Shown: piece after piece, positions 32,585-64,000 of the stretch | Layout of the letters: every line of letters starts with the position of its first letter | How positions within the stretch are numbered: position 1 is the first letter of the stretch | Made by a program: the position numbers and the translations under genes | DNA from: Antedon mediterranea | Lineage: Eukaryota; Animalia; Echinodermata | Direction of reading: 5' to 3' | Length of the DNA: 64,000 nucleotides | NCBI RefSeq assembly: GCF_964355755.1 | Contig: NC_092677.1 | Coordinates: forward strand, 4,672,101 to 4,736,100 | Notes under the pieces: model-generated | What the model was told of the DNA's origin: nothing | Databases searched by the model: none | The model's input: the letters and a program-made list of their open reading frames with translations, nothing else

Positions 32585-32905
32585 TCACCTCTATTTCTGT
32601 GTACCTGCATGTCTGCGTTTTCATTTTTGTTAAAGATATACAGACAATCTTTGATATATATGTAATTTATTTGTTTCGATCTCGTGAAAAGAAGTTGGTT
32701 CGTTAGTTTCAATTATGTTATATCGTATTATTGCTGATTTGATTAATTTGTTACCACACAAACAAAATGACAACTTTTGTAAAAAGTAAACACTAATAGT
32801 CTCCATTTAATCTCGCCTTTTAAACTAACTTTTCGGAGATTTTCGATTACATTGCAACTCGTTTCCAATTGAAACTATATTTCTTCTACCCACCCGGAAA
32901 AGAGT
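32585..32905 (-). promoter_or_regulatory. Putative promoter and non-coding first exon of the Ig genes (paralogous at ~37597, ~42553, ~47256, ~53162, ~60508)
   Basis: Conserved donor (GAG|GTGAGTAA) upstream of every signal-peptide exon, a conserved TATATATA-like box ~65-80 bp beyond it, and a conserved ACCCGGAAAAG block in copies 1, 2, 4 and 6. Confidence 0.55.
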
Positions 32906-37126: not shown

Positions 37127-38749
37127 ATCTGAGGGGAAATGATAATATTTACATTCAATAGGATTGATTAATATTGAAGTTCACATCTATAATAGATGTA
37201 GTGTATGCCTTATCTGTTTCACTATTTCACTATCAATAGGCCTAATAATAGGCCTAATAGAATATAAAGAATAATGTACAAAACATGTACTATATAAACA
37301 AAGCTAACAGTTATCAAATCATATTAAACATAATATACATTGATGATAATACATCTGTGTATTCGATACTCATGTCGATTGGTTAGAAAGTGTATAATAA
37401 TAAAAACAACAGATATGTAACATTTCTTGTCTTCAGCGGCTAACGTAATCCTAGTAACTTATTGATAACGTCATTAAAAATATCAATGTCAACAACATGC
37501 TCCTCCGTTACCCACTTACAATACAATTATCTTTCTTGGTCATAATTGTAACCATTTAATAATTATCAGTTATCATAATAATCAGTTACATTAATTACTC
37601 ACCTCTATCTCTGTGTACTTGCATCTCTGTGTTTTTAATTTTACGCAATAAGATATACATATACAATCTTAGATATATATGTAATTTATTTGTTTCGATC
37701 TCGTAAAAAGAAGTCATTTTATTCTCGCTTTTTAAACTAACTTCTGAGACAGGTAGTTAATAAGTTCGATTATATGCTCCTTGTTTTCCAATTAAAATGA
37801 TTATTTCTGCTACCCGGAAAAGTATATTGTTTAATTATTCAAATAATGTAGTACAAAGATACTGATGGCCACAAATGTATTGTTGATTGTTGTTAATATC
37901 AGGCAACACTGTGATTTCACTCTGCAGCTGTGTCAGTTATTTCCAGCCTACTTATTATAAACATGTTGCTGCTTTATGTATTTTATACGGCGATGTTATA
38001 ACTAATTACACTTCATTTCATAAATACAATAATATTCAACTCACAACACTATTTGCCACACCGTTTATTTTTAATTATTGTCTTAAAATGCCTCTCTATA
38101 AAATATTTGTATACAAAAATGGTATCTCACTGGGTAATGTAAACAATCCCCGTTCTTATTGAAATAAAAAAGTATAGCACAAACAATAATCCTCCAAAAA
38201 CACCAAGGAACTATAATAGATTGACTATTAGAATATAATTGATACATTTTTTGCTGTATATAAAACTACGCTAGAAAAGCAGTACAATTAAGAATAAACT
38301 ATAACTACACAAATTTAAGTATAAACATTTCTACCTATTTTACAATGCTCTAATTACATTAGTAGGCCTAGTCCCTTAGATGATAATAACGAGAATAAAC
38401 AAAACTTATTGTATACATAAATTACGCTTAAGCAGCTTCCAATTGTTATTGTACTGTAGGCCTATATTATACTTAAGTTTTTGTTATGACTCTCGTATAC
38501 TCATAAACAATTGGATAAACTCTCGCTTAGAGCAAGGTTTCATTTCCTCGTTAACCATTTATTTTATGTGTTTGTTATTAATTTCCGTCATGCAGAATAA
38601 TATAACAATTTGTGTTTGTATTTATTAAGTTATATATTTAGTTATAGAACTGTTGAGAATAATGTAGTTCTAGAGCCTTTCCCGTTTGTGACGTACTAGT
38701 AACACTATCACGTGACACATCCTTCGTACTGGGGATTCTGACATTTTAT

Positions 38750-41700
38750 CTAAATCTTTCCTCCTGTTTTCTGAAGAAAAAAAATATAACAATATTGATT
38801 ATTATCGAGATTAATTGATTTTTAAAACTCAAAACAAATAATAATGTTTTTATGGACTTTGACATTATATAAAATATTAATATCAATGCTATTACAAACC
38901 AGTGCACATCCTTTTCCTAAACAAAATTAGAGTTCCAAGTTTGTTAATTAGTTTAAATTAGGTCAAACGTCTTGTGTGGCGATGTCCGGTAATGTTATGG
39001 TGACATAGCCCTACGTTTATTATTGTTCGTTTAATATGTTTACTTGTACTTTTGAAATGCATACTATTATTGACGCAGGCATGACATATCCCTCGTCATC
39101 TTCGATATCAGAGTTTGCTGAAACTTTCAATTCTTGGTAGTGATGGTCTTGACATTCGACTTTTACTTCTCTCTGTTAAACAATAGATGGTATTTATTTA
39201 ATCAAGTTTAGTTTTTGTGTGAAATAAGAAAATGTAAATGAACTGTAATTATTTGTTGAGTTTAAATTGTGTTACTTGAATTTACTCTCCACTTTTGAGA
39301 TACATACTTCTTTATCAGACATAGGCCTAACATATTCCTCGTCATCATTGTCAACATCAGTGTTTGCCGAAACTTGTAAATCTTCATATTGGTGACTTTG
39401 ACGTTCTATTTCTCTTACTTCTCTCTGTTAAACAATAGAGACGGTGTTTTGTAGTAAACATACTTTTAAGGTCAATTTAAACAGACGAGCTTAACTTAAA
39501 TTTTACCCGTATTCCTGTCCTGGATCTTTGTTTATTTGTCGTCCCGGTAACAGCAGACTCCATGGGTTCTTTCTTTAGCCATTTGTAATCCTCAGAATTT
39601 GAAGAAAATTGCAATGCTTGATACTGAGACTTTTGGCACTTGGAAAGGATTTTTTTTATTCGTTTAACCTTATAAAAGAGAAAAGTAACGATAACTCATA
39701 ACAAATTACCTCCGCCAAAGTTATATTTTCACCCATGATTGTGTATGTTAGTGTGTTTCATTTTTAAATCTCACCAAACTCGGAGACAAAGATCTACAGG
39801 TATGACTCAATTCTCACCGGAGGTTGGATATTATATAGGGGAATTACTGTAGGTGGATGTATGCATTCTTAGATTAGCCTCTAGTGTATATCTGAATTAT
39901 ATTTGAATTTGAAATATTTCTTAATTAACCTAAAAATACTTACATAGATATGACGGGTTATTATAAACGTCGGGACAACGCATAGAATTGCCGTTATTGC
40001 TATTGTTAGCACTGTACTTATTGCATGCGAACAACCACCTAAAAGGTACAAAGTAACATGTTGAAATTGACCTCTGCATTCACCAGCAGCACACACCAAC
40101 ACTCATACATTCAAACAATGAACAAGCGCTGTATCCCAAATGTATCAAACCATCGTGTGCATAACAAAATACTCTATGTTATCTTTTCGACCACTACAAC
40201 CCTAAGTTAAATCATATATGCATTTTCTATAATCTAATTCTTTCTTGGTTAAATACATTTGATGCCATGCTCTTAAGTCAAATTACCTGCGTTACAGTTC
40301 TCTAGAATAGCTGTATTACTCATTTTTTCATTCTCTGCATAACATGTAAGACTTGACTGACATATCTCATCATTAATGCCCAAGGTTACTGAATTTTCTC
40401 CTTTTATAACCAATTCTCCATCTTGTAAGATCAATATTGTTGTTGACAGTTTGGGATAGCCCTCAGCTGTACAAGTTGCAAAACCATTTTTAGGTTTAAA
40501 TGTCACAGTGATATCTAAACAAGTTAGAATAGAAATGTAGCTTATTAATTGTGGGACAACTCTCTGGAATTGACAAACAAGTTGTATACCTGTTTGCATT
40601 CATTAAAAAACTGTTTATTTAAACCACCATAAAAAGCCTGCCAAAGCTTCGGAAGGCAATTAAAATGTAGACAACCAATGCAAACAAACATTCTGAACCG
40701 TTTATCTTTTATCGAAAGCATTAAAAGCTTCGAATCAATGCTTTATAGGTTGGCAGGACCAAGGAAGAGTGAAGTTGTAATCACTCTTACCTGGCAAAAC
40801 ATTTTAGGCCTATTGAAGATTGTACATTTACATACGGTATATATCCAACTGTTTTTCAACACTTGTTTTAGCATCGTCTCCTTTAAACTGATCACTTTCT
40901 GCTTTACATGTATATCTCCCACCGTCTTCTTCAGTAGCTGATTTAATCTTAAGAACTGACACTGTACTGTTATTTGTAATGTCATATCTAGATGGGTTGA
41001 TATTTATTCTGCATCCATCTTTATACCACGTTAGGTCAGGAATAGGGTCTCCATCAGGTTTACTGCATGTAAATGTTACTGTTTCGTTTTTGAAGGTATT
41101 GGATGCGGAAGCACGAATAAGAGGTTTCTCTAAGTCTGAGAAAACAGATGGAAGAGACTACAATATTAGAGATAGTATAATTGGTTGTTTGCCTAATGTC
41201 TAGCAGATTGTCTATTTAGTTTTTGTGCGCATGATTTTTATAATCTGTTTAAACCATAATTTATTGTAGGTCTATTTAATGATTTTGGTACTCACAATAC
41301 ACAGTTAGAACAGATGGATTAGATAAGTGATCTAATCCATATGTTGTTTGTATCTCGCACCGAAATCTTCGCTGAGAATCATTTCTCGTTGGCTGTGACA
41401 TCACCAAGTTAGCTCTCACAGATGTTATGTTCAATTTAAAACGACCATTTTCTAACACCTTATCATTAACAAAACCAGGAGTAGTGACTACGCCATCTTC
41501 ATTTAATTCATCCCATTGTACTGTATTAGATGTAGTAGAAGTAAATTGTGAATAATCACAAGTTATCACCACTTCAGCATCACCTTCTTTAGCTATCTGG
41601 TCAGATGTTGTCACCGAATGACCATGTGATTCTAAAGATAAGGATACTATACTTATTTATTCAGTAAAACATAGGATATTAATTATGGAAAACTATTGCA

Positions 41701-42019
41701 ACCGGATTGAGCCTTTATATTTCAATTGCACTATTATTGTATAGATATTTTTTTTTAATTGTCTCTTAATAAGTTAAGTTGGAGATAACGTGTCTTGGTG
41801 GTAAAAGAAAGAATCAAAAAGTAGTAACAGGCGTCTACTTGTGTCTTTTTTTGATTTAAAATGTCTTTGTCTTTTATTTAAACAGATACAAGTTGTAATG
41901 CATCTAGCATGCAGAACATATATATTATTACTTAAAAACTACTAATAGGTAGTGTGTTACTAAATTGGTTTACCGAGTAAAGAGTGTATAACAACTAACA
42001 GCGGCAACCATAACACCAT
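38750..42019 (-). CDS. IgSF receptor copy 3 (B-type tail with canonically spaced ITAM)
   Basis: Exons 42019-41974 (MVLWLPLLVVIHSLL), 41631-41296, 41135-40836, 40514-40287, 40038-39944 (TM), 39668-39507 (SQYQAL-QFSSNSED-YKWL), 39424-39308 (YEDL, YVRP), 39172-39065 (YQEL, YVMP) and 38770-38750 (KTGGKI*). Confidence 0.87.
39706..39885 (+). mobile_element. Degenerate Helitron/Helentron-like short element in an intron (also ~50306 and, truncated, ~62622)
   Basis: TTACCTCCGCCAAAG...GTGT-rich...CTAGT ends. It is absent from the homologous intron of copy 2. The family assignment is from memory only. Confidence 0.4.
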
Positions 42020-42270
42020 ATCTGAGAAAAAATAAGGATTTTTACATTCAATAGATTAATTAATATCTACCGTTGATGTTGTTATAATCAACACTTAGTT
42101 CATTCACGGCCTAAAAATGTCATTATATCAACATTTCTGTCGTTGTCTTGTTGTTGCCAACCTCACATCGCCATTGATAACGTAATAACCGTAATAAAAG
42201 AATGAGATGATTCTAAATCACCGACTTCTTCTGCGCATTTCGAAGTAATGGCAACATGCTCCTGCTCATG

Positions 42271-42450
42271 AGACCAATTCAGACAGCTTCGTACGATGAG
42301 TCGTCTCGTCGGGAGAAAATAAACATGTTTGAATTTCTCCTGACACACCGGGCAAGACGACTCGTCTCGTCGGGATTCAACTCAGACAGCACCGACGAGT
42401 CAAGAAGTTTCGTGGGGCCTCGTCGTACAACGCTGTCTGAGTTGGCCTTA
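42271..42450. mobile_element. MITE in the 5'-UTR intron of copy 3 (duplicate at ~52873-53052)
   Basis: TIRs AGACCAATTCAGACAGC...GTACGA / TCGTAC...GCTGTCTGAGTTGGCCT with TA-type flanks. Confidence 0.75.
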
Positions 42451-43112
42451 CACGTTTACACATAAATATAATATATGGATTACAGTCATTGTCGAACACC
42501 AATCAACAAGGGCTTAAAAACTTTTATAAATTTTATTTAAATCATATTTATTACTCACCTCTATCTCTAGGCCTATACATGCTTATCAGCGTTTTCGATT
42601 TTTACGTATAAATAAGATATAAAGACAATATTTGATATATATGTAATTTATTTTTTCAGAACAATTGATGATGCTAAGAAGCTAAGCGTTAGTTTCAATT
42701 ATGTTATATCTAAATCTACAAACTTCTTTGTACAGTACAGTAGACTCTCGAATCAGATCGACTGATGTCTTGTTCCCCGAAAACATGAAAAATGAAGATT
42801 AATATAAAAAAAATCAGACTTTCCATTTGGCATTTCAAATAAAGTTATTCACTTCCGTAGACAAAAAACGAACATAAATAATGATTTCACACAAAAAAAC
42901 GGATAGGCCTATATTTCAGGTAAATAATTAGTCAATAAAAAATATGTGAAATTAAAATGGCATTTTCAACAAATCAATGTGTTTTAAATATATTTTCTAA
43001 GGAGACAATATGCCTATCTTTAATCAAAACTGTAGTAAAAATACAATAAATACGCAATTTTCCTTGCTAATTTATTTTCTTTAAAGTTAAAATAAATGTA
43101 CGTGAAAACGAC

Positions 43113-46100
43113 TTATGTATTCCGAATGTTAGAATAATGTGATTCTCCTCCTAAAACGTTTCCCTTATTTGACAACGTACTGACAACACATTTCCCCTCA
43201 CTTAGGTTCGGCTCTTCGTAAATGGCAAGACTTTCCGAATCTTTCACTTCTTGGTATTGATTGTTACTTTCGATTTCTATTACCCGTCTCTGCACCCGTC
43301 GATGCGCCTGCTTGAAACAAATATGTATTTATATATTAACAATGATAAAGATATGCACACTGAATTTGTTATTAAAAGAATACCGTATATAAATAAAGAA
43401 CATAAATATAGAAAAAAAGATGCAACCTGTCCCGATCTATCATAGGGATAACCGGTATGGTTCACTAAAATATTTATATTTCTAGTTTCTGTAGAAGCAA
43501 CCACACGTGTTATTATCAGTGTTGCTTCTGATCACACAACTTTGTTTATGGAGGACGTAAGCGTAACGTAAAGCTCTGTCTATTCTAACAAACTTTATGT
43601 GATAAAAAAATGATGTAATATCACTACCATATTTGAGCATATCACTACCATATTTGGGCACATCACACTTTTTTTGCAAAACTAGTTTGATATTGTAGAC
43701 AGAGCTTAATTGATTTGGCCAATCACAAGCGATGGATTATTTTAACTTTCACTTGTCATTGATCAATTCGCATGTGTTGCGTCTAAACAAAAGAAGTTAA
43801 AGCGTGGTTCCCACTAGCGACGCATCACAAGGATGTAACGCAACGCAAGTTAATTGACCAATCACAAGCGATGGCTTATTCGCTTGTGATTGCTAACTGT
43901 CTATAACTTCGCTTGTCATTGGTTAAAACGCTTAAGTTGCGTTTACGTCCTTGCGTTACGTTCTAGTGGGAACCAAGCTTTAACGAGGGTTAATCAAAGA
44001 TTACATGTAATAGTAGTTTTTTGGTACCTCGAGTTCTCTAGAAGAAGCTTTACGTGACGTAGTCCTGGTACTGCGTCCATTATTTACTGAAGTATTTTTG
44101 CTGAGTTCTTGGTAAACACCAGAACCACTTGATGCAAACTGCAGTGCTTGATACTGAGAATGTTGACATTTTATTTCTCTTATTCGTCTTTTCTAAAGAA
44201 ACAATAAAAATAGTGGGTGACAATATTAATATTAGATATAAATATTTATACATTTAGTATATGTGGTTTTTAAATCCTGTGTACACATCCTAAAATACTG
44301 CGTTCAAATCGCGACTCTATAATAGTCCACACCAAGATGTTACTCGTGTGTTATAAGCATCAAATATGAGACTTAATGACTTTCCCATATTCTATAATTG
44401 GCGAAACGGAATAATTTTAATCACTTACGTTAAAGGAAATTATAAAGACAACATTTTAATAATCTGACCTACTGTATGTTGGTACCGTATTTATAGTAAG
44501 ATCTTTAAAAAAGGTTTCTTCCTCTCTTTTAACCTTCTTATTATCTGTATGATCCCTTTATAATCAGGTGGTTAAATGTCGTTCATGTTAAAATATATGC
44601 GTGCGTGTTAATAATCGAGAGTCTATACTTACATAAATATAACGGGTTGTTATAAAGGTAGGAACAGAGCCGAGAAAAAGCGCAGTTACTATAATTGCTA
44701 CAGTTAGTACTGTAAATATTGGACACGATTCACCTGGAAATATAATAAATTTTAACATATGAATACCATTATTACAATGTTTAGGGCATTCAAAATCTTC
44801 ATCCGCCACCCTGCTATGCTTGTTATACACCAAATAGAAACATAGCTTGCAAAATTATTTTATTGGTGATTTGATAAGAAAACTTAATGTTAATAAAAAT
44901 ACGTTATATCTACTTCTTACATTGATCGTAGTTCATAGATTTATTTTTTATTATTTCCAATCGATTAAAAGACCTTTTCATATCACAAACAATGATCGTG
45001 TGCGTGGTCCAAAACAAGAACTTAAATAAAATAAACTATAGGCTATGCATACTGGAAAATTATATCAAGGCCTATACCTGCTTTACAGTTCTCAAGTGTT
45101 GCTGTTTGTTTTAGCTTTCCATTCTCTGCATAACACGTAATATTTGGTTTACATATCTCATCATTAATTTCTATAGTTGCTGTATTGTCTGCTTTTACAA
45201 CCACTTCTCCATCTTTTAATATCAATACTGATGTTGGCTTGGGATGGCCCTCTGCTGTACAAGTTGCAATACCATCTCCAAATGCAAAAGTAACATGAAT
45301 AGCTAAAAAAATAATAATACAATCGGCATTATAGGCTACGGTTGATGCAACTCGATTCGTAATGACCATTTGTTTTTAGCATTTGGGTAAAATATATTAG
45401 TTAGAAGAATTGGTGTAGAGGCGGGTGGGGGCGGGGGGGGGGGGAGGGGGTCCAAAAGGGAAAGGTTTATACTGATATTGTCCAAATAAGATCAATATTA
45501 ATTTGACATACTATAAACAAGTATGTTCATCTGTTTTCCCAAAAGGGAAAGGTTTATACTGATATTGTCCAAATAAGATCAATATTAATTTGACATACTA
45601 TAAACAAGTATGTTCATCTGTTTTCCAACACTTGTTTTAGCATCCTCGCCTTTAAACTGATCACTTTCTGCTTTACATGTATATCTCCCACCATCTTCTT
45701 GAGTAGCTGATTTTATTTCAAGAACTGACTCTGTACTGTTATTGGTAATCTCATATCTAGAAGGGTTGTTGGTGTTGACTGTCTGTCCATCTTTATACCA
45801 AGTAATGTGAGGAATAGAATCACCATCAGGTTTACTACAGGTAAAGGTCACTGATTGACCTTCATAGACACTACTTGATGAGGCATCAAGAAGTGGTTGA
45901 TCTAAATCTGAAGAAAAATAAGACGCTAGATTACTGGGCTTGCCATATTCAACACCTGTAAACAGGTGGACTGAGAAATCTGTGATCATCAACAAGAAAA
46001 CTAAAAACGAAAATATCCTTTAGCAGATTCTTTGCTATTTAAGAGAATTTAATCTGTGTTACTCACAGTATACAGTTAGAATAGATGGATTTGAGCCTCT

Positions 46101-46782
46101 AATTATCCCCTCCGTTGTTCGTATTTCACACTGAAATGTTCGTCCAGAATCAGATCTCATTGGCTGTGACATCACCAAGTCAGCTTTCTCGGGTGTTGTA
46201 TTTAATGTAAAACGCCCGTTTTTAATCTTAATATCATTAACAAGGTTAATAGTAGATCCATCTTCATTTAGTTCATTCCATTCTATTGCAACAGGTCTAG
46301 TAGAAGTAAATTGTGAATAATCACAAGTTATCACTACTTCAACATCACCTTCTTTGGCTGTCTGGTCAGACGTTGTCACCAATTGACCACGTGATTCTAA
46401 AGATTAAGAATGCAAAACGTTACTCTCTTGCTTATGCATAAATTTATAGGCTATTATTATGGAAAACTATAAGCAATATAGCCTTTTCCGTTTTTTAAAA
46501 CTTTAAGTAACATGATTGATGAATTGATACATTTTCTGATAATAAAGTATAAGTTATAAAGCAAAGAAGTAATCATGTATACATAACAACATTTATTCGT
46601 CCAATTGTGTCCTGTTTTAGATTTAACATTCATTTGTCTTTTTTTTAAACAGATACAAATTATAATGCATGCGTCTGGCTGAACATTGATTATCAATTGA
46701 AGACTATTACTGGCATATTACTCTGAATTAGTTTACCGAATAAAGAGTGTATAACAATTAACAGCACCAACCATACAGCCAT
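43113..46782 (-). CDS. IgSF receptor copy 4 (A-type tail)
   Basis: SP MAVWLVLLIVIHSLF (46782), V ~46396-46067, I ~45906-45599, Ig3 ~45302-45078, TM ~44733-44633, tail ~44192-44028 (YQAL-x9-YQEL) and 43307-43113 (YQEV, YEEP, SHYSNI*). Frame open. Confidence 0.9.
43571..43708. mobile_element. MITE with AAGCTCTGTCTA TIRs (duplicate at 54191-54328)
   Basis: AAGCTCTGTCTA ... TAGACAGAGCTT with TAA flanks. Confidence 0.8.
43800..43980. mobile_element. PIF/Harbinger-like MITE
   Basis: TAA|AGCGTGGTTCCCACTAG ... CTAGTGGGAACCAAGCT|TTAA, with internal inverted symmetry. Confidence 0.8.
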
Positions 46783-47896
46783 ATCTGAGGGGAAATGATA
46801 ATATTTACATTCAATAGCATAAATTAATCTTGAAGTTCACATATATCATTGATGTAGTGTATGCCTTATCTGTTTCACTATTGTTACTATCAATAGGCCT
46901 AATTAATAAATAGAATGTAAATAATAAAGTGTACAAAGAAAAGTACTGTAACTATATAAACAAAGCTAACAGTTATAAACTCATATTAAACATAATATAC
47001 ATTGAGGACACTACATCTGTATTCGATACTCATGTCGATTGGTTAGAAAGTGTATAATAATAAAAACAACAGATATGTAACATTTCTTGTCGTCCGCGGC
47101 TAACGTAATCCCAGTAACTTATTGATAACGTCATTAAATATATCAATGTCAACAACACGCTCCTACGTTACCCACTTAAAATACGATTATCTTTCTTGGT
47201 CATTTTGTAACCATTTAATAATTATCAGTTATCATAATAATCAGTTACATTAATTACTCACCTCTATCTCTGTGTACTTGCATCTCTGTGTTTTTAATTT
47301 TACGCAATAAGATATACATATACAATCGTAGATATATATGTAATTTATTTGTTTCGATCTCGTAAAAAGAAGTCATTATAATCTCGCTTTTTAAACTAAC
47401 TTTTCGGAGACAAGTAGTTAATACGTTCAATCACATTGCTTCTTGTTTTCCAGTTAAAATTATTATTTCTGCTACCCGGAAAAGTGTATTGTTTAATTAT
47501 TCAAATAGTGTAGTAAAAAGATACTGGTCACAAATGTATTGTTGATTGTTGTTAATATCAGGCAACACTGTGATTTCACTCTGCAGCTGTGTCAGTTATT
47601 TCCAGCCTACTTATTATAAACATGTTGCTGCTTTATGTATTTTATACGGCGATGATATAACTAATTACACTTCATTTCATAAATATAATAATAGTCAACT
47701 CACAACACTATTTGCCACACCGTTTATTTTTAGTTATTGTCTTAAAATGCCTCTCTATAAAATATTTGTATACAAAAATGGTATCTCACTGGGTAATGTA
47801 AACAATCCCCGTTCTTATTGAAATAAAAACGTATAGCACAAACAATAATCCTCCAAAAACACCAAGGAACTATAATAGATTGACTATTAGAATATA

Positions 47897-48835
47897 TTAC
47901 ATAGCCTATGTAAATACGCGAACGTGATTGGTTGAAACTGCATCACATGACTACCGCTGCGAGGATCGTAAATCGTATATATTCTCGAGAACGATGATAT
48001 TGACTGTGTAATTTTCGCGTAATTATCGTGTCCCCTGTCATTAAACATATAGATTCTCGAGTACGATGATATTGACTGTGTAATTTTCGTGTGCCAACAC
48101 TCGCGTTGCCGATAAATAAACAAAAGTCATCTACTCGATCTTGAACTCGGGTGGAATTGTTACTCCATCGCAAGACAACGCTTCAACCGCTGGGCCACGG
48201 AAGTTGCTTGAAGAAATTAATCTTCTAAACTATTTAAGCTATGCATACATAGCGCCCTCATTTGTTATAAGTCCACCCTAAATGTGATGAAACACCGTTT
48301 ATGATTGGTCAATACTCACGGTAGTAACCTAGTAACTAGTACGCGCTGAACATCCGGTGATTCGGCTCCTCGAAGATCGAGAAGACGACGAATTGTTTAT
48401 TCGGCCTACCTGATTATAATATTATTATTAATAGGCTTATTGATGGAAATTCTTCTGTTAATTTAAACGACCTAGGCCTAAGTGAATATTTTATTGCCAA
48501 GGAATCATTAATTAGTAATTATCTGTATATTATTCTTCGCAAGGTAAGGTGTCTAGGCAGTACAATACAATAAGGAGGCCTAGGCCCTACAGTAGCTAGC
48601 CTATCTTCACCCAACCCAGCAGACTTGTTCTTGGCTATATAATATAACAGATATTGCCTTTTATATCGGTTAAATATAAGATTTGACATCCCCTCGGGAA
48701 TGATATTAAGTTCTCGGGGAATATATATTTCCCTCAGCTGGCGCTTCGGGAAATATATATTCCCTCGAACTTAATATCATTCCCTCGGGGATGTCAAATC
48801 TTATATTTAACCTCTAAGCAGTCAATATCTGTATA
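47897..48835. mobile_element. ~940-bp insertion with terminal ~190-bp hairpin and internal tRNA-like segment
   Basis: Absent from the paralogous sites at ~38235 and ~61162 (TAGAATATAATTGA). Hairpin at ~48647-48833. Minus-strand A/B-box-like sequence at ~48135-48200. Confidence 0.85.
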
Positions 48836-49349
48836 ATAATTGGTACATTTTTTGCTGTATATAAACTACGCGAGAAAAGCAGTACAATTAAGAATAAACT
48901 ATAACTACACACATTTAAGTATAAACATTTCTACCTATTTTACAATGCTCTAATTACATTAGTAGGCCTAGTCCCTTAGATGATAATAACGAGAATAAAC
49001 AGAACTTATTGTATACATAAATTACGCTTAAGCAGCTTCCAATTGTTATTGTACTGTAGGCCTATATTATACTTAAGTTTTTGTTATGACTCTCGTATAC
49101 TCATAAACAATTGGATAAACTCTCGCTTAGAGCAAGGTTTCATTTCCTCGTTAACCATTTATTTTATGTGTTTGTTATTAATTTCCGTCATGCAGAATAA
49201 TATAACAATTTGTGTTTGTATTTATTAAGTTATATATTTAATTATAGAACTGTTGAGAATAATGTAGTTCTAGAGCCTTTCCCGTTTGTGACGTACTAGT
49301 AACACTATCACGTGACACATCCTTCGTACTGGGGATTCTGACATTTTAT

Positions 49350-52300
49350 CTAAATCTTTCCTCCTGTTTTCTGAAGAAAAAAAATATAACAATATTGATT
49401 ATTATCGAGATTAATTGATTTTTAAAACTCAAAACAAATAATAATGTTTTTATGGACTTTGACATTATATAAAATATTAATATCAATGCTATTACAAACC
49501 AGTGCACATCCTTTTCCTAAACAAAATTAGAGTTCCAAGTTTGTTAATTAGTTTAAATTAGGTCAAACGTCTTGTGTGGCGATGTCCGGTAATGTTATGG
49601 TGACATAGCCCTACGTTTATTATTGTTCGTTTAATATGTTTACTTGTACTTTTGAAATACATACTATTATTGACGCAGGCATGACATATCCCTCGTCATC
49701 TTCGATATCAGAGTTTGCTGAAACTTTCAATTCTTGGTAGTGATGGTCTTGACATTCGACTTTTACTTCTCTCTGTTAAACAATAGATGGTATTTATTTA
49801 ATCAAGTTTAGTTTTTGTGTGAAATAAGAAAATGTAAATGAACTGTAATTATTTGTTGAGTTTAAATTGTGTTACTTGAATTTACTCTCCACTTTTGAGA
49901 TACATACTTCTTTATCAGACATAGGCCTAACATATTCCTCGTCATCATTGTCAACATCAGTGTTTGCCGAAACTTGTAAATCTTCATATTGGTGACTTTG
50001 ACGTTCTATTTCTCTTACTTCTCTCTGTTAAACAATAGAGACGGTGTTTTGTAGTAAACATACTTTTAAGGTCAATTTAAACAGACGAGCTTAACTTAAA
50101 TTTTACCCGTATTCCTGTCCTTGATCTTTGTTTATTTGTCGTCCCGGTAACAGCAGACTCCATGGGTTCTTTCTTTAGCCATTTGTAATCCTCAGAATTT
50201 GAAGAAAATTGCAATGCTTGATACTGAGACTTTTGGCACTTGGAAAGGATTTTTTTTATTTGTTTAACCTTATAAAAGAGAAAAGTAACGATAACTCATA
50301 ACAAATTACCTCCGCCAAAGTTATATTTTCACCCATGATTGTGTATGTTAGTGTGTTTCATTTTCAAATCTCACCAAACTCGGAGACAAAGATCTACAGG
50401 TATGACTCAATTCTCACCGGAGGGGGTTAGATGTTATGTAGGGGAATTACTGTAGGTGGATGTATGCATTCTTAGATTAGCCTCTAGTGTATATCTGAAT
50501 TATATTTGAATTTGAAATATTTCTTAATGAACCTAAAAATACTTACATAGATATGACGGGTTATTATAAACGTCAGGACAACGCATAGAATTGCCGTTAT
50601 TGCTATTGTTAGCACTGTACTTATTGCATGCGAACAACCACCTAAAAGGTACAAAGTAACATGTTGAAATTGACCTCTGCATTCACCAGCACACACCAAC
50701 ACTCATACATTCAAACAATGAACAAGCGCTGTATCCAAAATGTATCAAGCCACCGTGTGCATAACAAAATACTCAATGTTATCTTTTCGACCATTACAAC
50801 CCTAGGTTAAATTATATATGCATTTTCTATAATCTAATTCTTTCTTGGTTAAATACATTTGATGACATGCTCTTAAGTCAAATTACCTGCGTTACAGTTC
50901 TCTAGAATAGCTGTATTACTCATTTTTTCATTCTCTGCATAACATGTAAGACTTGACTGACATATCTCATCATTAATGCCCAAGGTTACTGAATTTTCTC
51001 CTTTTATAACCAATTCTCCATCTTGTAAGATCAATATTGTTGTTGAAAGTTTGGGATAGCCCTTAGCTGTACAAGTTGCAAAACCATTTTTAGGTTTAAA
51101 TGTCACAGTGATATCTAAACAAGTTAGAATAGAAATGTAGCTTATTAATTGTGGGACAACTCTCTGGAATTGAAAAATAAGTTGTATACCTGTTAGCATT
51201 CATTAAAAAACTGTTTATTTAAACCACCATAAAAAGCCTGCCAAAGCTTCGGAAGGCAATTAAAATGTAGACAACCAATGCAAACAAACATTCTGAACCG
51301 TTTATCTTTTATCGAAAGCATCAAAAGCTTCGAATCAATGCTTTATAGGTTGGCAGGACCAATGTAGAGTGAAGTTGTAATCACTCTTACCTGGCAAAAC
51401 ATTTTAGGCCTATTGAAGATTGTACATTTACATACGGTATATATCCAATTGTTTTTCAACACTTGTTTTAGCATCATCTCCTTTTAAACTGATCACTTTC
51501 TGCTTTACATGTGTATCTCCCACCATCTTCTTCAGTAGCTGATTTAATCTTAAGAACTGACACTGTACTGTTATTTGTAATGTCATATCTAGATGGGTTG
51601 ATATTTATTCTGCATCCATCTTTAAACCACGTTAGGTCAGGAATAGGGTCTCCATCAGGTTTACTGCATGTAAATGTTACTGTTTCGTTTTTGAAGATAT
51701 TGGATGCGGAAGCACGAATAAGAGGTCTCTCTAAATCTGAGAAAACATATGGAAGAGACTACAATATTAGAGATAGTATAATTGGTTGTTTGCCTAATGT
51801 CTAGCAGATTGTATATTTAGTTAATGTGCGCATGATTTTTATAATCTGTTTAAACCATAAATTATTATTATAGGTCTATTTAATGATTTTGGTACTCACA
51901 ATACACAGTTAGAACAGATGGATTAGATAAGTGATCTAATCCATATGTTGTTTGTATCTCGCACCGAAATCTTCGCTGAGAATCATTTCTCGTTGGCTGT
52001 AACATCACCAAGTTAGCTCTCACAGATGTTATGTTCAATTCAAAACGACCATTTTCTAACACCTTATCATTTACAAAACCAGGAGTAGTGACTACGCCAT
52101 CTTCATTTAATTCATCCCATTGTACTGTATTAGATGTAGTAGAAGTAAATTGTGAATAATCACAAGTTATCACCACTTCAGCATCACCTTCTTTAGCTAT
52201 CTGGTCAGATGTTGTCACCGAATGACCATGTGATTCTAAAGATAAGGATACTATACTTATTTATTCAGTAAAACATAGGATATTAATTATGGAAAACTAT

Positions 52301-52622
52301 TGCAACCGGATTGAGCCTTTATATTTCAATTGCACTATTATTGTATAGATATTTTTTTTAATTGTCTCTTAATAAGTTAAGTTGGAGATAACGTGTCTTG
52401 GTGGTAAAGGAAAGAATCAAAAAGTAGTAACAGGCGTCTACTTGTGTCTTTTTTTTTATTTAAAATGTCTTTGTCTTTTATTTAAACAGATACAAGTTGT
52501 AATGCATCTAGCATGCAGAACATATATATTATTACTTAAAAACTACCAATAGGTAGTGTGTTACTAAATTGGTTACCGGGTAAAGAGTGTATAACAACTA
52601 ACAGCGGCAACCATAACACCAT
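49350..52622 (-). pseudogene. IgSF receptor copy 5 (B-type), frameshifted in the I-set exon
   Basis: Near-identical to copy 3, but CTTTTAAAC at ~51481 versus CTTTAAAC at ~40881 is a +1 shift giving DQFKRR* (stop 51474-51476). It could be a homopolymer assembly error. Confidence 0.7.
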
Positions 52623-53732
52623 ATCTGAAAAAAATAAGGATTTTTACATTCAATAGATTAATTAATATCTACCGTTGATGTTGTTATAATCAACACTTAG
52701 TTCATTCACGGCCTAAAAATGTCATTATATCAACATTTCTGTCGTTGTCTTGTTGTTGCCAACCTCACATCGCCATTGATAACCTAATAACCGTAATAAA
52801 AGAATGAGATGATTCTAAATCACCGACTTCTTCTGCGAATTTCGAAGTAATGGCAACATGCTCCTGCTCATAAGACCAATTCAGACAGCTTCGTACGACG
52901 AGTCGTCTCGTTGGGAGAAAATAAACATGTTTGAATTTCTCCCGACACACCAGGCAAGACGACTCGTCTCGTCGGAATTCAACTCAGACAGCACCGACGG
53001 GTCAAGAAGTTTTGGTGGGGCCTCGTCGTACAACGCTGTCTGAGTTGGCCTTACACGTTTACACATAAATATAATATATGGATTACAGTCATCGTCGAAC
53101 ACCAATCAACAAGGGCTTAAAAACTTATGATTTTATAAATTTTATTTAAATGATATTTATTACTCACCTCTATCTCTAGGCCTATACCTGCTTATCCGCG
53201 TTTTCGATTTGTACGTATAAATAAGATATAAAGGCAATATTTGATATATATGTAATTTATTTTTTCAGAACAATTGATGATGCTAAAAAGCTAAGCGTTA
53301 GTTTCAATTATGTTATATCTAAATCTACAAACTTCTTTGTACAGTACAGTAGACTCTCGAATCAGATCGACTGATTTGTTGTTCCCCGAAAACATGAAAA
53401 ATGAAGATTAATAATATAAAAAAATCAGACTTTCCATTTGGCATTTCAAATAAAGTTATTCACTTCCGTAGACAAACGAACATAAATAATGATTTTACTT
53501 ATGAAAATACAATAAAAAACGGCTAGGCCTATATTTCAGGTAAATAATTAGTGAATAAAAAATATGTGAAATTAAAATGGCATTTTTAACAAAACAATGT
53601 GTTTTAAATATATTTTCTAAGGAGACAATATGCCTATCTTTAATCAAAACTGTAGTAAAAATACAATAAATACGCAATTTTCCTTGCTAATTTATTTTCT
53701 TTAAAGTTAAAATAAATGTACGTGAAAACGAC

Positions 53733-56700
53733 TTATGTATTCCGAATGTTAGAATAATGTGATTCTCCTCCTAAAACGTTTCCCTTATTTGACAACGTAC
53801 TGACAACACATTTCCCCTCACTTAGGTTCGGCTCTTCGTAAATGGCAGCACTTTCCGAATCTTTCACTTCTTGATATTGATTATTACTTTCGATTTCTCT
53901 TACCCGTCTCTGCACCCGTCGATGCGCCTGCTTGAAACAAATATGTATTTATATATTAACAATGATAAAGATATGCACACTGAATTTGTTACTAAAGGAA
54001 TACCGTATATAAATAAAAAACATGAATATAGAAATAAAGATGCAACCTGTCCCGATCTATCATAGGGATAACCGGTATGGTTCACTAAAATATTTATATT
54101 TCTAGTTTCTGTAGAAGCAACCACACGTGTTATTATCAGTGTTGCTTCTGATCACACAACTTTGTTTATGGAGGACGTAAGCGTAACGTAAAGCTCTGTC
54201 TATTCTAACAAACTTTATGTGATAAAAAAATGATGTAATATCACTACCATATTTGAGCATATCACTACCATATTTGGGCACATCACACTTTTTTTGCAAA
54301 ACTAGTTTGATAGTGTAGACAGAGCTTAATTGATTTGGCCAATCACAAGCGATGGATTATTTTAACTTTCACTTGTCATTGATCAATTCGCATGTGTTGC
54401 GTCTAAACAAAAGAAGTTAAAGCGTGGTTCCCACTAGCGACGCATCACAAGGATGTAACGCAACGCAAGTTAATTGACCAATCACAAGCGATGGCTTATT
54501 CGCTTGTGATTGCTAAAGGCCGGTGCACACCAAACGCGAAGCCGCGAATTTCGCGTTAAAAAGTGACGCACGCGGCAGGCGACGGACGCTTCCAGTGTGA
54601 ACATACAAGCGAACAGTGTACGATAGTCGAATTTCAACTTCAACGCGTTGAAAACGACAGCCGCGAAGGCTTCGCACGCGAATTTTCAAAAGTTGAACCT
54701 TGGTCAACTTTTTGAGGCGTCGCGAGCGCGGTTTGCGTTCGTCAACCAATCAGAAGTCAGGAATATCTCTCAATCGACGACACCGACGGCAAAAAAATGG
54801 TGGCTGACGAGCGAGGTCTTTATGGAAATACTTACCCTTCTTGTCTTTACGATAAGGGAAGTAAGTCATACACAGACAGAAACATAAGGATTAATGCATG
54901 AAGACAATAATTTCAGACAAACATCTGTGTAGAAGAATGCCAGAAAAACTAGGCCTAAAACGCGTCAGAGATCAATTTGTAAAGTGAGTTGACAAGCCTA
55001 TTTCTAGCCTAGGCCTAGGCCCTAGGCCTACCTAGGTTTAGGCAATACTAGGGCCTAGCTAGGCCTACCTAGCCTAGGCTACATATACCCTAGTAGGCTA
55101 GGCCATGCCAAGTAGTACTTATAGGCCTACATAATACTTACTAATCCCTACTAGTCTATGTGCTAGGCCAGGCCTAGCCTAGGTTAAGCCTACTACTAAA
55201 TATGAGTACAGTACCTAGCCTACTTATTATTATTAATTAATATTTATAGGCCTAATATTTAGTTGATTTAGTGTTGTAAGGCTAGGATAGGCCTAGTAGT
55301 AGTAATATTAATACATAAATACTGTTGTTTTTTTTAGGTCAATTAGATGAACATTGATAAATGGGATCCTTCAGGCTATTACCAGCGTTACAAACTCCAC
55401 CAATGACCAAGCTAGTAGTTTAAGCGGCCAGTATTATTATTGCCATGGAATTAAGAGCAATTGCTCCTCAAAAACGTGGACTGGCAATTATGAGGCTGAT
55501 ACAGGTTTGTATAGACTTTTTTCAAATGGGTATGTCAGTTGGTGACATACATTGGCCAGAAAAAAATGATTTGAGCAATATGCCTTACTATAGCAATTTT
55601 TTAATACTTGTTTCATTTTTTTTTTAATAGAAAATGGAAGAGATTAAGGAGGAGTTGGACTGTAACTAGTATTTATTAAGTGGTTATAGAAGGAAAGCTG
55701 AACTGAATGTCTTTTTTTAGCAATAGAGAACACATGGAAATATATGTATATGTTTTGTTATACTCCAATACTAAAAAAATAGTCAAATTGGCTGCCAGCT
55801 AATGGAATGTTTTTCATTTTATAAGTGAAAACATAAGTTTTGTTGGGTTTTTTCTATGTAAGTGATCTTAACTTCTATAATTTAAAATTTTTTTTATTTC
55901 TCTATTTTATGTACTTTCACTATTATATATTCATATTTTAGTCTACTCTGTAGCAATGTTAGTATACTTAGGCATACGGGAGTCACGACTTAAAGTTCAG
56001 TGAACTTACTGTGACTTCCATCCACCCACATTTAATATATTATGTTATGTAAATGTAAATGATATATATATAATATATAAGTGAGTGGAAAAAATAAATA
56101 AACGAAACGAAACGAAACGAAACTTTGTTAAAACTACAAAATGGCCTATTCAAATTTGATTTTAATCATCTTCATTTTTCATGATTCTATGGGACAATAC
56201 ATCTTTAAGTTTAGTGTCATTTTTTGGAAAAGATATATTGTCTTCCTGAAAATATAATTTAAAACATTTTCGTTGTGTGTAATACAGTATAACACTTTAG
56301 GGTTAGTTATTCACTTTTAACAATAATAATATTTCTTCAATTTTCATTTTTTTTGGGATGATACATTTTAAATTTATTATTTTGATATTATTTTGCAAAA
56401 GTATTCAGGAGTAGTAAAAAAGAAAATCTGGTTGATATTTAATGATACCTTTAAAAACAATGATTCACTATTTCAATAAGTGTATTTATGTGAAAAAAAA
56501 GTCATAAGATAATAAATACAGTGTAAATATGAGTTTGGGACATTTATTACATTTAATCAAATGAGAATAAAACTGTATGTTTTGTCATGAATAATATAAT
56601 ATTTAATAATAATTAGAAAATAAATGTGAAAACTTTACATTAATATATAGGCATATAGTTTATATTTTTAAAGTGACAAACCCATGAAGATTCCCAGTTC

Positions 56701-59700
56701 GTGTTTATATGAAATGTTTTATATGGTTATAATAACCTCTGTTGAAAGATATTTGTAACACCACTAATAAATACAGTCAGCAGATCACATGTACGTGTAA
56801 TCAACATGCAATAAATGCTTTAATTCTTGTAACTGTATTGATATTGGATACATCTTCTTCTGTCCTTGTTATATATACATACAATCATGCACATTTCAGG
56901 CTTTGGAAAAGGATAACATTTTCCCACCAAAACCAAACACTGTGATTGGTGTAACCAGGGAAGAGTTAAATTACATTTTAATTTAACTCTTCTCTGGTTA
57001 AACTTACATAGGAAATACTTCAGAGTCATCTTCTCTGATTATTTTAAATGTAGCATTGTATTATTGGCCAACCCACTATCTCCTAGGCCTAGCAATCGCG
57101 ACGAATCAGCACATCGTGACGCGTTTAGTGGGAACCGACAAGAAAAACTAATAGACGCATGACAATTCAACTTTCAAAGCGATCCGTCGAGTGACGCATG
57201 ACGCTTCGCTTGTCATTGGTTAAAACGCTTGCGTTGCGTTTACGTCCTTGCGTTACGTTCTAGTGGGAACCAAGCTTTAACGAGGGTTAATCAAAGATTA
57301 CATGTAATAGTAGTTTATTTGTACCTCGTGTTCTTTAGAAGATGCTTTACGTGACGTAGTTCTGGCCCTGCGTCCATCATATACTGAAGTATCTTTGCTG
57401 AGTTCTTGGTAAACACCAGAACCACTTGATGCAAACTGCAGTGCTTGATACTGAGAATGTTGACATTTTGATTTCATTTCTCTTATTCGTCTTTCCTAAA
57501 GAAACAATAGCAAGATACCATTGGGTGACATTTTATTTGAAATATTAATATTAGATATTTATACATTTAGTATGGTTTTTAAATCATGTGTACAAATCCT
57601 AAAATAATGGGTTTAAATAGCGACTCTATTATAGACCACACCAAGATTGTACTCGTGTGAATAGGCCTAATAATGATATAAATATGAGACTTAATGACCT
57701 TTCTATATTCTGTAATTGTCGAAACGAAATAATTAAAATACTATTTTTAATCACTTACATTAAAGGAAATTATAAAGACAACATTTTAAAATCTGACCTA
57801 CTCTATGTTGGTACCGTATTTATAGTAAGATCTTTAAAAAAGGTTTCTTCCTCTCTTTTAACCTTCTTATTATCTGTATGATCCCTCTATAATCAACTAC
57901 ATTTGGTTAAATGTCTTTCATGTTAAAATATATGCGTGTTTGTTAATAATCGTAGAGTCTATACTTACATAAATATAACGGGTTGTTATAAAGGTAGGAA
58001 CAGAGCCGAGAAAAAGCGCAGTTGCTATAATTGCTACAGTTAGTACTGTAAATGTTGGACACGATTCACCTGGAAATATAATACATTTTAACATATGAAT
58101 ACCATTATTATAATGTTTAGGGCATTCAAAATCTTCATCCGCCACCCTGATATGCTTGTTATACACCAAATAGAAACATAGCTTGCAATTATTTTATTGG
58201 TGATTTTATAAGAAAACTTAATGTTAATAAAAATACGTTATATCTTCTTCTTACATTGATCATAGTTCATAGATTTATTTGGTTTTATTTCCAATCGATT
58301 AAAAGACCTTTTCACATCACAAACTATGATCATGTGCGTGGTCCTACTTTTAAAACAAGAACTTACATAAAATAAACTATACGCTATGCATACTGGGCAA
58401 TTATATCAAGGCCTATACCTGCTTTACAGTTCCCAAGTGTTGCTGTTTGTTTTAGCTTTCCATTCTCTGCACAACATGTAAGATTTGATTGACATATCTC
58501 ATCATTAATTTCTATAGTTGCTGTATTTTCTCCTTTCTTAACCACTTCTCCATCTTGTAATATCAATACTGATGATGGCTTGGGATGACCCTCTGCTGTA
58601 CAGGTCGCAACACCATCTCCAAATGTAAAAGTAACATGAATATCTAAAAAAACACAATAATACATTCGGCATTAGGCTACGGTTGATGCAACTCGATTCG
58701 TAATGACCATTTGTTTTTAGCATTTGGGTAAAATAAATTAGGTTTTTAAGAAGAATTGTAGAGGGGGAGAGTGAAAGCGGGGTGGTGTTGGTGATGGTGA
58801 TGGTAGTGGTGAGGGAGTTTATAAATGTTTATTTTACATACTATAAACAATTATGGTTAGCTGTTTTCCAACACTTGTTTTAGCATCCTCTCCTTTATAC
58901 TGATCACTTTCTGCTCTACATGAATATCTCCCACCATCTTCTTCAGTAGCTGATTTTATTTCAAGAACTGACTCTGTACTATTATTGGTAATCTCATATC
59001 TACAATGACTGTTAGTGTTGACTGTTTGTCCATCTTTATACCAAGTAATGTAAGGAATAGGATTACCTTCAGGTTTACTACATGTGAAAGTCACTGATTG
59101 ACCTTCATAGACAATACTTTCTGCCGCAGAAAGAAGTGGTTGATCTAAATCTGAAGAAAAATAAGACACTGTAGATTACTGTGCTTACTACATTCAACAC
59201 CTGTAAACAGGTGGACTGAGAGATCTGTGATCATAAACAAGAAAACTAAAAACGAGATCCTTTAGCAGATTCTTTGCTATTTAAGAGAATTATTGTTATA
59301 TAATAAGTTATTGAAATTTAATCTGTGTTACTCACAATATACAGTTAGAATAGATGGATTTGATCTTGCAATATCTCCATCTGTTGTTCGTATCTCACAT
59401 TGAAATGTACGTTGATAATCAGATCTCATTGGCTGTGACATCACCAGTTCAACTTTCTCATGTTTTATGTTAAATGTAAAACGTCCATGTTCTATCTTCT
59501 TATCATTTACAATGTTAATGGTATATCCATCTTCATATACTTCATCCCATTGTATTACATCAGGTGTAGTAGAAGTAAATTGTGAATAATCACAAGTTAT
59601 GACCACTTCAGCATCACCTTCTTTGGCTGTCTGGTCAGACGTTGTCAACAATTGACCACGTGATTCTAAAGATTAAGAATGCAAAACGTTACTGTCTTGC

Positions 59701-61682: not shown

Positions 61683-64000
61683 CTAAATCTTTCCTCCTGT
61701 TTTCTGAAGAAAAAAAATATAACAATATTGATTATTATCGAGATTAATTGATTTTTAAAACTCAAAACAAATAATAATGTTTTTATGGACTTTGACATTA
61801 TATAAAATATTAATATCAATGCTATTACAAACCAGTGCACATCCTTTTCCTAAACAAAATTAGAGTTCCAAGTTTGTTAATTAGTTTAAATCAGGTCAAA
61901 CGTCTTGTGTGGCGATGTCCGGTAATGTTATGGTGACATACGTTTATTATTGTTCATTTAATATGTTTACTTGTACTTTTGAAATACATACTATTATTGA
62001 AGCAGGCATGACATATCCCTCGTCATCTTCAATATCCGAGTTTGCTGAAACTTTCAATTCTTGGTAGTGATGGTCTTGACATTCTCTCTGTTAATACAAT
62101 AGATGGTATTTATTTAATCAAGTTTAGTTTTTGTGTGAAATAAGAAAATGTAAATGAACTGTAATTATTTGTTGAGTTTAAATTTTGTTACTTGAATTTA
62201 CTCTCCACTTTTGAGATACATACTTCTTTATCAGACGTAGGCCTAACATATTCCTCGTCATCATTGTCAACATCAGTGTTTGCCGAAACTTGTAAATCTT
62301 CATATTGGTGACTTTGACGTTCTATTTCTCTTACTTCTCTCTGTTAAACAATAGAGACGGTATTTTGTAGTAAACATACTTTTAAGGTCAATTTAAACAG
62401 ACGAGCTTAACTTAAATTTTACCCGTATTCCTGTCCTGGATCTTTGTTTATTTGTCGTCCCGGTAACAGCAGACTCCATGGGTTCTTTCTTTAGCCATTT
62501 GTAATCCTCAGAATTTGAAGAAAATTGCAATGCTTGATACTGAGACTTTTGGCACTTGGAAAGGATTTTTTTTATTTGTTTAACCTTATAAAAGAGAAAA
62601 GTAACGATAACTCATAACAAATTACCTCCGCCAAAGTTATATTTTCACCCATGATTGTGTATGTTAATGTGTTTAATTTTCAAATCTCACCAAACTCGGA
62701 GACAAAGATCTACAGGTATGACTAAAAGGTACAAAGTAACATGTTGAAATTGACCTCTGCATTCACCAGCATACACCAACACTCATACATTCAAACAATG
62801 AACAAGCGCTGTATCCCAAATGTATCAAACCACCGTGTGCATAAAAAAATACTAAATGTTATCTTTTCGACCACTACAACCCTAAGTTAAAATATATATT
62901 ATGCATTTTCTATAATCTAATTCTTTCTTGGTTAAATACATTTGATGACATGCTCTTAAGTCAAATTACCTGCGTTACAGTTCTCTAGAATAGCTGTATT
63001 ACTCATTTTTTCATTCTCTGCATAACATGTAAGACTTGACTGACATATCTCATCATTAATGCCCAAGGTTACTGAATTTTCTCCTTTTATAACCAATTCT
63101 CCATCTTGTAAGATCAATATTGTTGTTGAAAGTTTGGGATACCAACCATTTTTAGGTTTAAATGTCACAGTGATATCTAAACAAGTTAGAATAGAAATGT
63201 AGCTTATTAATTGTGGGACAACTCTCTGGAATTGAAAAACAAGTTGTATACCTGCTTGTATTCATTAAAAAACTGCTTATTTAAACCATCATAAAAAGCC
63301 TGATAAAGCTTCGGAAGGCAATTAAAATGTAGACAACCAATGCAAACAAACATTCTGAACCGTTTATCTTTTATCGAAAGCATCAAAAGCTTCGAATCAA
63401 TGCTTAATAGGTTGGCAGGACCAAGGAAGAGTGAAGTTGTAATCACTCTTACCTGGCAAAACATTTTAGGCCTATTGAAGATTGTACATTTACATACGGT
63501 ATATATCCAATTGTTTTTCAACACTTGTTTTAGCATCATCTCCTTTAAACTGATCACTTTCTGCTTTACATGTATATCTCCCACCGTCTTCTTCAGTAGC
63601 TGATTTAATCTTAAGAACTGACACTGTACTGTTATTTGTAATGTTTATATCTAGATGGGTTGATATTTATTCTGCATCCATCTTTATACCACGTTAGGTC
63701 AGGAATAGGGTCTCCATCAGGTTTACTGTATGTAAATGTTACTGTTTCGTTTTTGAAGGTATTGGATGCGGAAGCACGAATAAGAGGTTTCTCTAAGTCT
63801 GAGAAAACAGATGGAAGAGACTACAATATTAGAGATAGTATAATTGGTTGTTTGCCTAATGTCTAGCAGATTGTCTATTTAGTTATTGTGCGCATGATTT
63901 TTATAATCTGTTTAAACCATAAATTATTGTAGGTCTATTTAATGATTTTGGTACTCACAATACACAGTTAGAACAGAGGGATTAGATAAGTGATCTAATC
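61683..64000 (-). pseudogene. IgSF receptor copy 7 (B-type), multiply disrupted; 5' part outside the window
   Basis: I-set Cys to Tyr (TFTYSK), +1 frameshift at ~63644 (stop 63632-63634), in-frame deletion of FATCTAEG in Ig3, complete deletion of the TM exon at 62721/62722, and a 12-bp deletion in tail exon 3. Confidence 0.88.

Follow-up and report, generated by a model that had tools for sequence, protein, structure and literature searches.

How can two neighbouring receptor genes carry V domains that differ at 26 of 109 codons when much of the DNA around those domains is nearly identical? The question is raised by a 64,000-nucleotide (nt) stretch of the feather star Antedon mediterranea (contig NC_092677.1, positions 4,672,101 to 4,736,100), referred to here as the window and numbered from its first letter, in which seven tandem genes for putative immunoglobulin (Ig) receptors, g1 to g7, occupy the minus strand from 29061 to the window end. 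Every gene is built on the same plan, a 22-nt first exon and a 48-nt signal exon followed by V, I-set, short third Ig-like, transmembrane (TM) and several tail exons, with one exon per Ig-type domain throughout the array; the reading frames of g1, g2, g3, g4 and g6 are open. The first-pass annotation of this DNA described a duplicated unit with hypervariable V domains in its A slot and frozen V domains in its B slot. The reading favoured here, at a probability of roughly 0.58, is that the V difference between the A-type copies g4 and g6 is an old divergence kept inside homogenised flanks by gene conversion and unequal crossing-over, together with selection for distinct domain tips. The two genes and the segments concerned are the following.

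43113..47283, minus strand: g4, intact A-type gene (V 46067-46396, I-set 45599-45907, third Ig-like exon 45078-45302, TM 44633-44733, Y-type tail)
46095..46297, minus strand: divergence island of the g4 V exon, codons ~33-100, from the BC loop to the FG loop
53733..60535, minus strand: g6, intact A-type gene (V 59336-59665, I-set 58842-59150, TM 57969-58069, Y-type tail), with ~2.7 kb of extra repeat DNA in its last intron
59364..59566, minus strand: divergence island of the g6 V exon, matching that of g4 in exon position, with no gaps in the alignment of the two V exons

The divergence profile of g4 and g6

The V domains of g4 and g6 had been put at about 26 differences in ~110 residues, and alignment bears this out, with 26/109 codons and 48/330 nt differing; the loop strings and framework motifs quoted with that count are also all present, except that LVMSQP reads LVMLQP in g5. 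The accompanying claim of nearly identical surroundings holds for the signal exon (0/48 differences), the upstream DNA (6/493) and the first intron (9/477), but not for the introns adjoining V, which are 95% identical (16/316 and 8/156 differences) and significantly more diverged than the outer flanks. Three levels can be distinguished between the two copies: outer flanks at 25/1687 (1.5%), inner introns at 70/1243 (5.6%, a count that excludes the C2-I3 intron with its 27/188 differences, tandem duplication and simple repeats), and exon peaks above both, reaching 14.5% in V, 9.7% in the I-set exon and 8.4% in the third domain. The peak has shoulders, and divergence is not restricted to V as had been supposed, since 18/102 amino acids differ in the I-set exon and 12/74 in the third Ig exon; it falls to 3 per 100 within the 159-nt intron that separates two raised exons. 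The best hot segment spans V nt 100-302 (codons ~33-100), with 43/203 differences (21%) as against 29/647 elsewhere from the signal exon to intron 3 (p=0.005, the floor of 200 permutations). The segment is bounded by the BC loop on one side and the FG loop on the other, and the 3' edge is very sharp, dropping from 17 to 3 differences per 100 nt. Within the V exon alone, clustering of the 48 differences is non-significant (p=0.08-0.13).

In order for g4 and g6 to have diversified in place, replacement divergence would be expected to exceed both silent and intron divergence. The reverse was found in V: the proportion of differing synonymous sites (pS 0.219) exceeds that of non-synonymous sites (pN 0.124; p=0.045), with corrected rates (dS and dN) of 0.26 and 0.14. 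Synonymous differences (17/77.5) far outnumber those in the flanking introns (24/472, p=7e-6), making dS four to five times the intron level, and the excess persists at four-fold sites alone (8/39, p=0.0015 against the same introns). That four-fold value equals the one for g1 and g4 (8/39) and lies near the one for g3 and g4 (9/36). As old pairs such as g1 and g4 show exon dS of 0.15-0.32 over the three Ig exons, not above their intron divergence (p 0.18-0.34), synonymous sites are not simply faster in these genes. CpG hypermutation was considered as a source of the excess and rejected, only 3/48 differences lying in a CpG context. The 14 purely synonymous codon differences are spread over columns 20 to 111, and high silent divergence of this kind, evenly spread, is what the first-pass annotation had itself named as the mark of old paralogues with homogenised introns. 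The exon, synonymous sites included, is more diverged than the non-coding DNA on either side, as in a conversion-resistant peak. With silent divergence in V at the level of old paralogues and far above the introns, g4 and g6 carry V segments that, on this measure, are older than their flanks and would not have diverged in place after a recent duplication.

The changes had been described as clustering at the BC loop, the C-C'-C'' region and the FG loop. Mapped by secondary-structure element, 16/26 do lie there (44 residues), but 8 others fall in D-DE-E-EF (23 residues) and 2 in A/A', so the pattern is a broad variable middle instead of three complementarity-determining regions. The sites at which g4 and g6 differ are also the variable ones when 12 further V domains of the family are compared (entropy 1.40 vs 0.73, p=3e-5), the FG loop being the most variable V element. 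Eight sequencing runs were listed, with shares of 0.05-0.43, none of them recorded as RNA. For the V exons of g6 and g4, the longest of the contig pieces listed carry 38-41 other letters, and closer A-type alleles may exist.

Genealogies along the array and the B slot

The history of the A-type copies changes along the gene, and the third gene with an A-type promoter, g2, is needed to follow it. Its feature line and that of g1 are given here.

29061..32610, minus strand: g1, intact (V 31437-31769, I-set 30748-31050, third Ig-like exon 30345-30572, TM, two tail exons), with a Y-type tail carrying ITAM and terminal ITIM consensus motifs
33699..37624, minus strand: g2, intact (V 36465-36794), A-type in its promoter, its signal exon and the first ~30 V codons, with a different body and a long tyrosine-repeat tail

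When the odd one out of g2, g4 and g6 was counted site by site, the g2:g4:g6 totals were 31:6:3 in intron 1, 4:3:11 in intron 2, 16:21:22 in V and 32:2:6 in intron 3. The odd copy is thus g2 upstream and in intron 1, g6 in intron 2, none in V, and g2 again in intron 3. These three-copy tracks show a genealogy that differs between flanks and exon, and such switching along the gene points to gene conversion or unequal crossing-over. Of the exon-limited gene conversion that had been proposed, the part that survives is this involvement of conversion or unequal crossing-over; pairwise tracts within V are non-significant. Between g2 and g4 there are 3/212 differences up to V nt 92 and 85/392 beyond it, and g2 is likely a chimera judging by this step. 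The A slot does not represent one kind of gene, as g2 joins an A-type 5' end to another body and tail. In two pairs, g4/g6 and g4/g2, high identity stops at V codon 31-33, in the BC loop. A Sawyer-type test gave a global p=0.0017 in V with no individual pair significant, and shuffling inside the V exon is only suggested by these alignments.

The B-type genes, and the block in which one of them was recently duplicated, are as follows.

38750..42580, minus strand: g3, B-type with an open frame (V 41296-41631); its last exon is shortened by a stop common to g5 and g7
49350..53190, minus strand: g5, B-type copy (V 51900-52235); first-exon ATG lost, and a +1 frameshift within an A homopolymer of the I-set exon
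61683..64000, minus strand: g7, B-type, 5' part outside the window; +1 frameshift in the I-set exon (different from that of g5), loss of 21 nt from the third Ig exon and of the whole TM exon
38235..43896, no strand: recent duplicate block (g3 and the last exon of g4), 97.8% identical to 48836-54516

The reported two-residue difference between the V domains of g3 and g5 is correct (2/111 codons, 3/336 nt), but its interpretation as a frozen domain does not survive comparison with the rest of the gene span, which differs at 57/3559 (p=0.48). The g3/g5 B slot is a recent duplicate. The B gene has recently been triplicated, and two of its three copies (g5 and g7) are broken. All three share the last-exon stop (38750-38770, 49350-49370 and 61683-61703), by which ~38 residues retained in g2, three tyrosines among them, are lost. 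The missing first-exon ATG is not necessarily fatal to g5, whose signal exon offers an in-frame ATG, and the g5 frameshift may be a sequencing error, the contig deletion at 51482 being no more assignable to g5 than to its paralogues. A 505-nt contig from another sample (S1), differing at 3 letters, spans most of the V exon of g3.

Several further features of the array were noted. In the V exon of g1 (31437-31769) the C-C' segment is rearranged and hydrophobic, unlike every other copy, while the flanking strands match the family. A perfect 87-88-nt tandem duplication at 45452-45626 copies the 3' end of the g4 I-set exon with its splice donor, creating a second possible donor. Upstream of g4 lies an insertion of ~940 nt (47897-48835), which the upstream regions of g2 and g6 do not have and in which a near-perfect hairpin of 145 nt occupies 48668-48812. 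In g6, the last intron (54360-57280) holds high-copy repeat DNA, ~2.7 kb beyond that of g4, with nested inverted repeats whose 22-nt arms lie at 54416 and 57260; contigs from three sequencing runs skip 54358-57206.

Selection and the competing explanations

Diversifying selection on the V domain had been proposed from the loop changes, and in site models a modest signal appears. With five V copies, M8 was preferred over M7 (p=0.004-0.011) and over M8a (p=0.001-0.004), significantly on 4/4 trees, placing 9-11% of sites at a dN/dS ratio (omega) of 3.4-4.4, chiefly the FG-loop columns 99, 101 and 102. The signal persists when ambiguous columns are masked, and 0/28 null simulations reach the observed value, while overall V omega is ~0.5. 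All 15 five-copy topologies lie within 7.3 log-likelihood units, and no V genealogy was inferred. The signal depends on the B copy g3 and is gone when g3 is left out. What stands of the proposal is a modest FG-loop excess with g3 included, at a domain whose same positions vary family-wide; among the A-type copies there is none. We read the V domain as a conserved framework with ~40% of sites near neutral and an FG loop that may, family-wide, be under modest diversifying pressure.

Old divergence within homogenised flanks could arise as follows. Unequal crossing-over would have multiplied a B-A unit, and gene conversion together with unequal crossing-over would overwrite promoter, leader and introns and so keep them alike. 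Selection would remove those tracts that enter the BC-to-FG segment, allowing old, distinct tips to persist. Homogenisation by conversion, and selection rather than chance tract ends as the setter of the island edges, are what we infer from the profile. Birth-and-death would lie behind the asymmetry between A and B, duplicates with distinct V domains staying intact and those with the same V decaying. Judging from the architecture, the V tip would bind a variable ligand, most likely microbes or parasites or other individuals, and would signal through a tail with ITAM and ITIM consensus motifs.

Several results weigh against this explanation. The sharp 3' edge of the island fits import of an exon segment equally well, and the DNA-level analysis covers one haplotype. 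After correction none of the pairwise conversion tracts in V stays significant (best global p=0.35), a test like the pairwise homoplasy index gave p=0.07 and 0.25 in V, and homoplasy excess there is borderline (p=0.07-0.14 for the best tree and 0.025-0.08 for a star). Five sequences went into the site models, which are home-made and take no account of recombination or multi-base mutations. For the A-type copies alone no class with omega>1 was found (M7 vs M8 p=0.997 for g2, g4 and g6, and 0.77 with g1), in tests of three to four sequences with low power. In addition, the I-set and third domains give M7 vs M8 p=0.006-0.012 and 0.03-0.17, similar in size to V, so the test is not V-specific.

The alternative that survives best, though we consider it improbable, is that the BC-to-FG segment of g4 or g6 was recently copied in, either from another haplotype or from distant paralogues, so that V segments would be exchanged among receptor bodies. 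Besides the 3' edge and the global Sawyer-type result, both states recur in other paralogues at 12/26 differing residues, both are present in g1, g2 or g3 at 16/48 differing bases, and g2 is itself likely a chimera. RefSeq model XP_071958820.1 (P0015) bears on the same point: it equals g1 at 325/325 residues from the I-set domain to the stop, but it opens with 19 residues that equal the last 19 of the g6 V exon (59336-59393), and match those of g1 at 15/19, before continuing into the g1 body (29061-31050). Speaking against import, no donor was found (the best full-length V match outside the window is 79/106 residues), pairwise tracts are non-significant, and the neighbouring exons and inner introns are raised too, which is unexpected from one import.

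The join in P0015 could have any of three sources: a g1 allele whose V exon ends like that of g6, a mistaken annotation, or genuine splicing over a long range. Long-range splicing would place a g6 V end (19/19) on an exact g1 body (325/325) although the two lie 28 kb apart in the window, and it would belong to a bolder picture that we regard as quite unlikely, in which crinoids possess a polymorphic V-type Ig receptor complex with a combinatorial repertoire, V exons being joined to different ITAM/ITIM bodies by DNA recombination, as in g2, and by long-range splicing across the array.

It is comparably unlikely that selection played no part, unequal crossing-over of old paralogues having made chimeras and relaxed constraint on surface residues having done the rest. 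The A-type-only models, with about 34-43% of sites near omega 1 and none above, would suit this account, as would the low overall omega and the evidence from g2 that chimeras arise. It does not readily explain why divergence drops in the 159-nt intron so that peaks coincide with exons, why two pairs have their edges at the BC loop, or why the five-copy models find an FG-loop signal.

Two further explanations are very improbable. Divergence of the A-slot V in place under strong positive selection after recent duplication, with the B-slot V under purifying selection, would fit the contrast of 26 with 2 residue differences and the variable FG loop, but is already contradicted by the excess of dS over dN and over introns, by a B-slot V equal to its own background and by the breakage of two of three B copies. 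An assembly artefact, with two haplotypes placed in tandem and g3/g5 and g4/g6 as alleles, would agree with the ~2% difference of the B block, a value of the order of heterozygosity in marine invertebrates, but not with three B copies bearing different lesions, unit-specific insertions and three A-type promoters, and the V island would then be real regardless, as allelic polymorphism.

A crinoid receptor family and its relatives

Of the 19 matches found with the g6 I-set exon, 15 are proteins of Antedon mediterranea, 71-81% identical. The Antedon mediterranea family proteins in RefSeq have consecutive accessions on one 28.6-Mb sequence. A profile search added relatives, of which 9/10 looked up were from Anneissia japonica; among the relatives recovered here, the family is found only in crinoids. 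In a tree of 24 V domains the 14 Antedon domains form one branch (98/99), unresolved inside and separate from the Anneissia domains. The tails of g1, g4 and g6 contain a YxxL-x9-YxxL pair that matches the consensus of an immunoreceptor tyrosine-based activation motif (ITAM), together with a terminal consensus for the inhibition motif (ITIM), under the definitions excerpted from PMC9546547. Both are retained in a distant Antedon/Anneissia pair. The tails of g2, g3, g5 and g7 instead have repeated YxxL and YxxP exons. Names such as JAM-like, hemicentin-like, lachesin-like and neogenin-like in the RefSeq sets of Antedon mediterranea and Anneissia japonica belong to members of this family; they are automatic, and none denotes a V-I-Ig receptor family with ITAM/ITIM tails.

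Some relatives outside the window deserve separate mention. P0002 (XP_071958821.1) is a third A-type gene with a Y-type tail that mixes g4-like, g6-like and own residues, its I-set domain matching g4 at 89/102 and g6 at 83/102. In the Antedon models P0003, P0005 and P0016 the V-I-Ig-TM ectodomain is followed by several more Ig domains and a BNR/sialidase-like Pfam match (PF13088); these may be real intracellular domains or fused gene models.

The V-set hallmarks C24, W39, R61, D82 and C89 are invariant in 13 sequences, placing the domain in the V-set, while the Pfam V-set match (E=2e-4) falls short of the Pfam cut-off. The predicted model of the g6 V domain reaches a predicted local distance difference test score (pLDDT) of 89, and its nearest folds are antibody and T-cell receptor V domains (template-modelling score about 0.7-0.8 at 13-22% identity), a likeness in fold only. 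A PDB sequence search gave generic I-set matches only, V being without a significant match (best E=0.021). The I-set domain has the core disulfide and tryptophan. For the third domain there is a weak Ig_3 match (E=0.017), no Fn3 match and a model with pLDDT <50; the P0008 ectodomain model, with a mean pLDDT of 51.6, is usable for V only.

Known systems offer close parallels for the evolutionary pattern. In excerpts of a report on bovine CEACAM32, a gene within the CEACAM1 paralogue cluster, conversion affects the leader exon and introns but not the Ig exons, and V-exon dN/dS averages 0.65 with weak site-level signals; as there, the array consists of tandem IgV-tipped receptors with ITIM/ITAM tails and a V dN/dS below 1, ~0.5 in Antedon (PMC7042247). 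No CEACAM appeared among the sequence matches, however, and the Antedon V domain has the B-F disulfide C24-C89, so it is not placed in that family. CEACAM N domains are not known to have this disulfide. JAM/CTX proteins have a pair of Ig domains and a short tail that terminates in a PDZ-binding motif, and this automatic RefSeq identity was rejected for an array with three Ig-like exons and tails of 115-204 residues with 5-8 tyrosines. Siglec V domains have atypical B-E and inter-domain disulfides; Siglec was likewise rejected, the V domains of g2, g3, g4 and g6 having the canonical B-F cysteine pair alone and that of g1 one further cysteine near the N terminus. In primate opsins, too, adjacent duplicates diverge strongly in the exon and little in the introns and the peak has shoulders, and in the excerpted account of human red/green opsin exon 5 a divergence peak stands under gene conversion, the selected sites being known and orthologues confirming the old exon (PMC3924837). 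In the Antedon array, unlike the opsins, several copies take part and exon age comes from silent divergence in one haplotype.

The Hydractinia Alr genes, as far as the excerpts of PMC9546547 describe them, are likewise an invertebrate cluster of single-pass receptors bearing V-set as well as I-set domains, one domain per exon, ITAM/ITIM tails and many pseudogenes, but many of their domains are without the core disulfide and tryptophan that are both invariant in the Antedon V domain, and they have an Fn3-like segment. No Alr was found among the array's sequence matches. Alr proteins bind homophilically in an allele-specific manner that controls allorecognition. The array family is not assigned to CEACAM, JAM, Siglec or Alr.

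The remainder of the window contains two satellite arrays, a 57-nt unit in 83 copies (1-4731) and a 74-nt unit in 31 copies (5489-7818), a 47-nt minisatellite (26962-27877), and two neighbouring genes: a CCDC84-family gene at ~11900-16000 on the plus strand (Pfam E=1.7e-11) and a WW-domain coiled-coil gene at ~15000-26500 on the minus strand (weak WW match) that resembles CEP164.

As the evolutionary pattern is already known from mammalian receptor and opsin genes, the contrast of a hypervariable A slot with a frozen B slot is mostly explained. The better find is the family, a diversified cluster of V-domain receptors with chimeras and pseudogenes, its ITAM and ITIM consensus conserved across two feather-star genera. 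It is apparently undescribed: no description was found in the literature searched on echinoderm and crinoid Ig receptors, a search outside which lay subscription journals and the supplements of genome papers, and those supplements may list the family. Crinoids are the earliest-branching class of echinoderms. If expressed in coelomocytes and polymorphic, the cluster would be a candidate for non-self recognition or allorecognition, and an invertebrate-deuterostome counterpart of the vertebrate leukocyte receptor clusters and of Hydractinia Alr.

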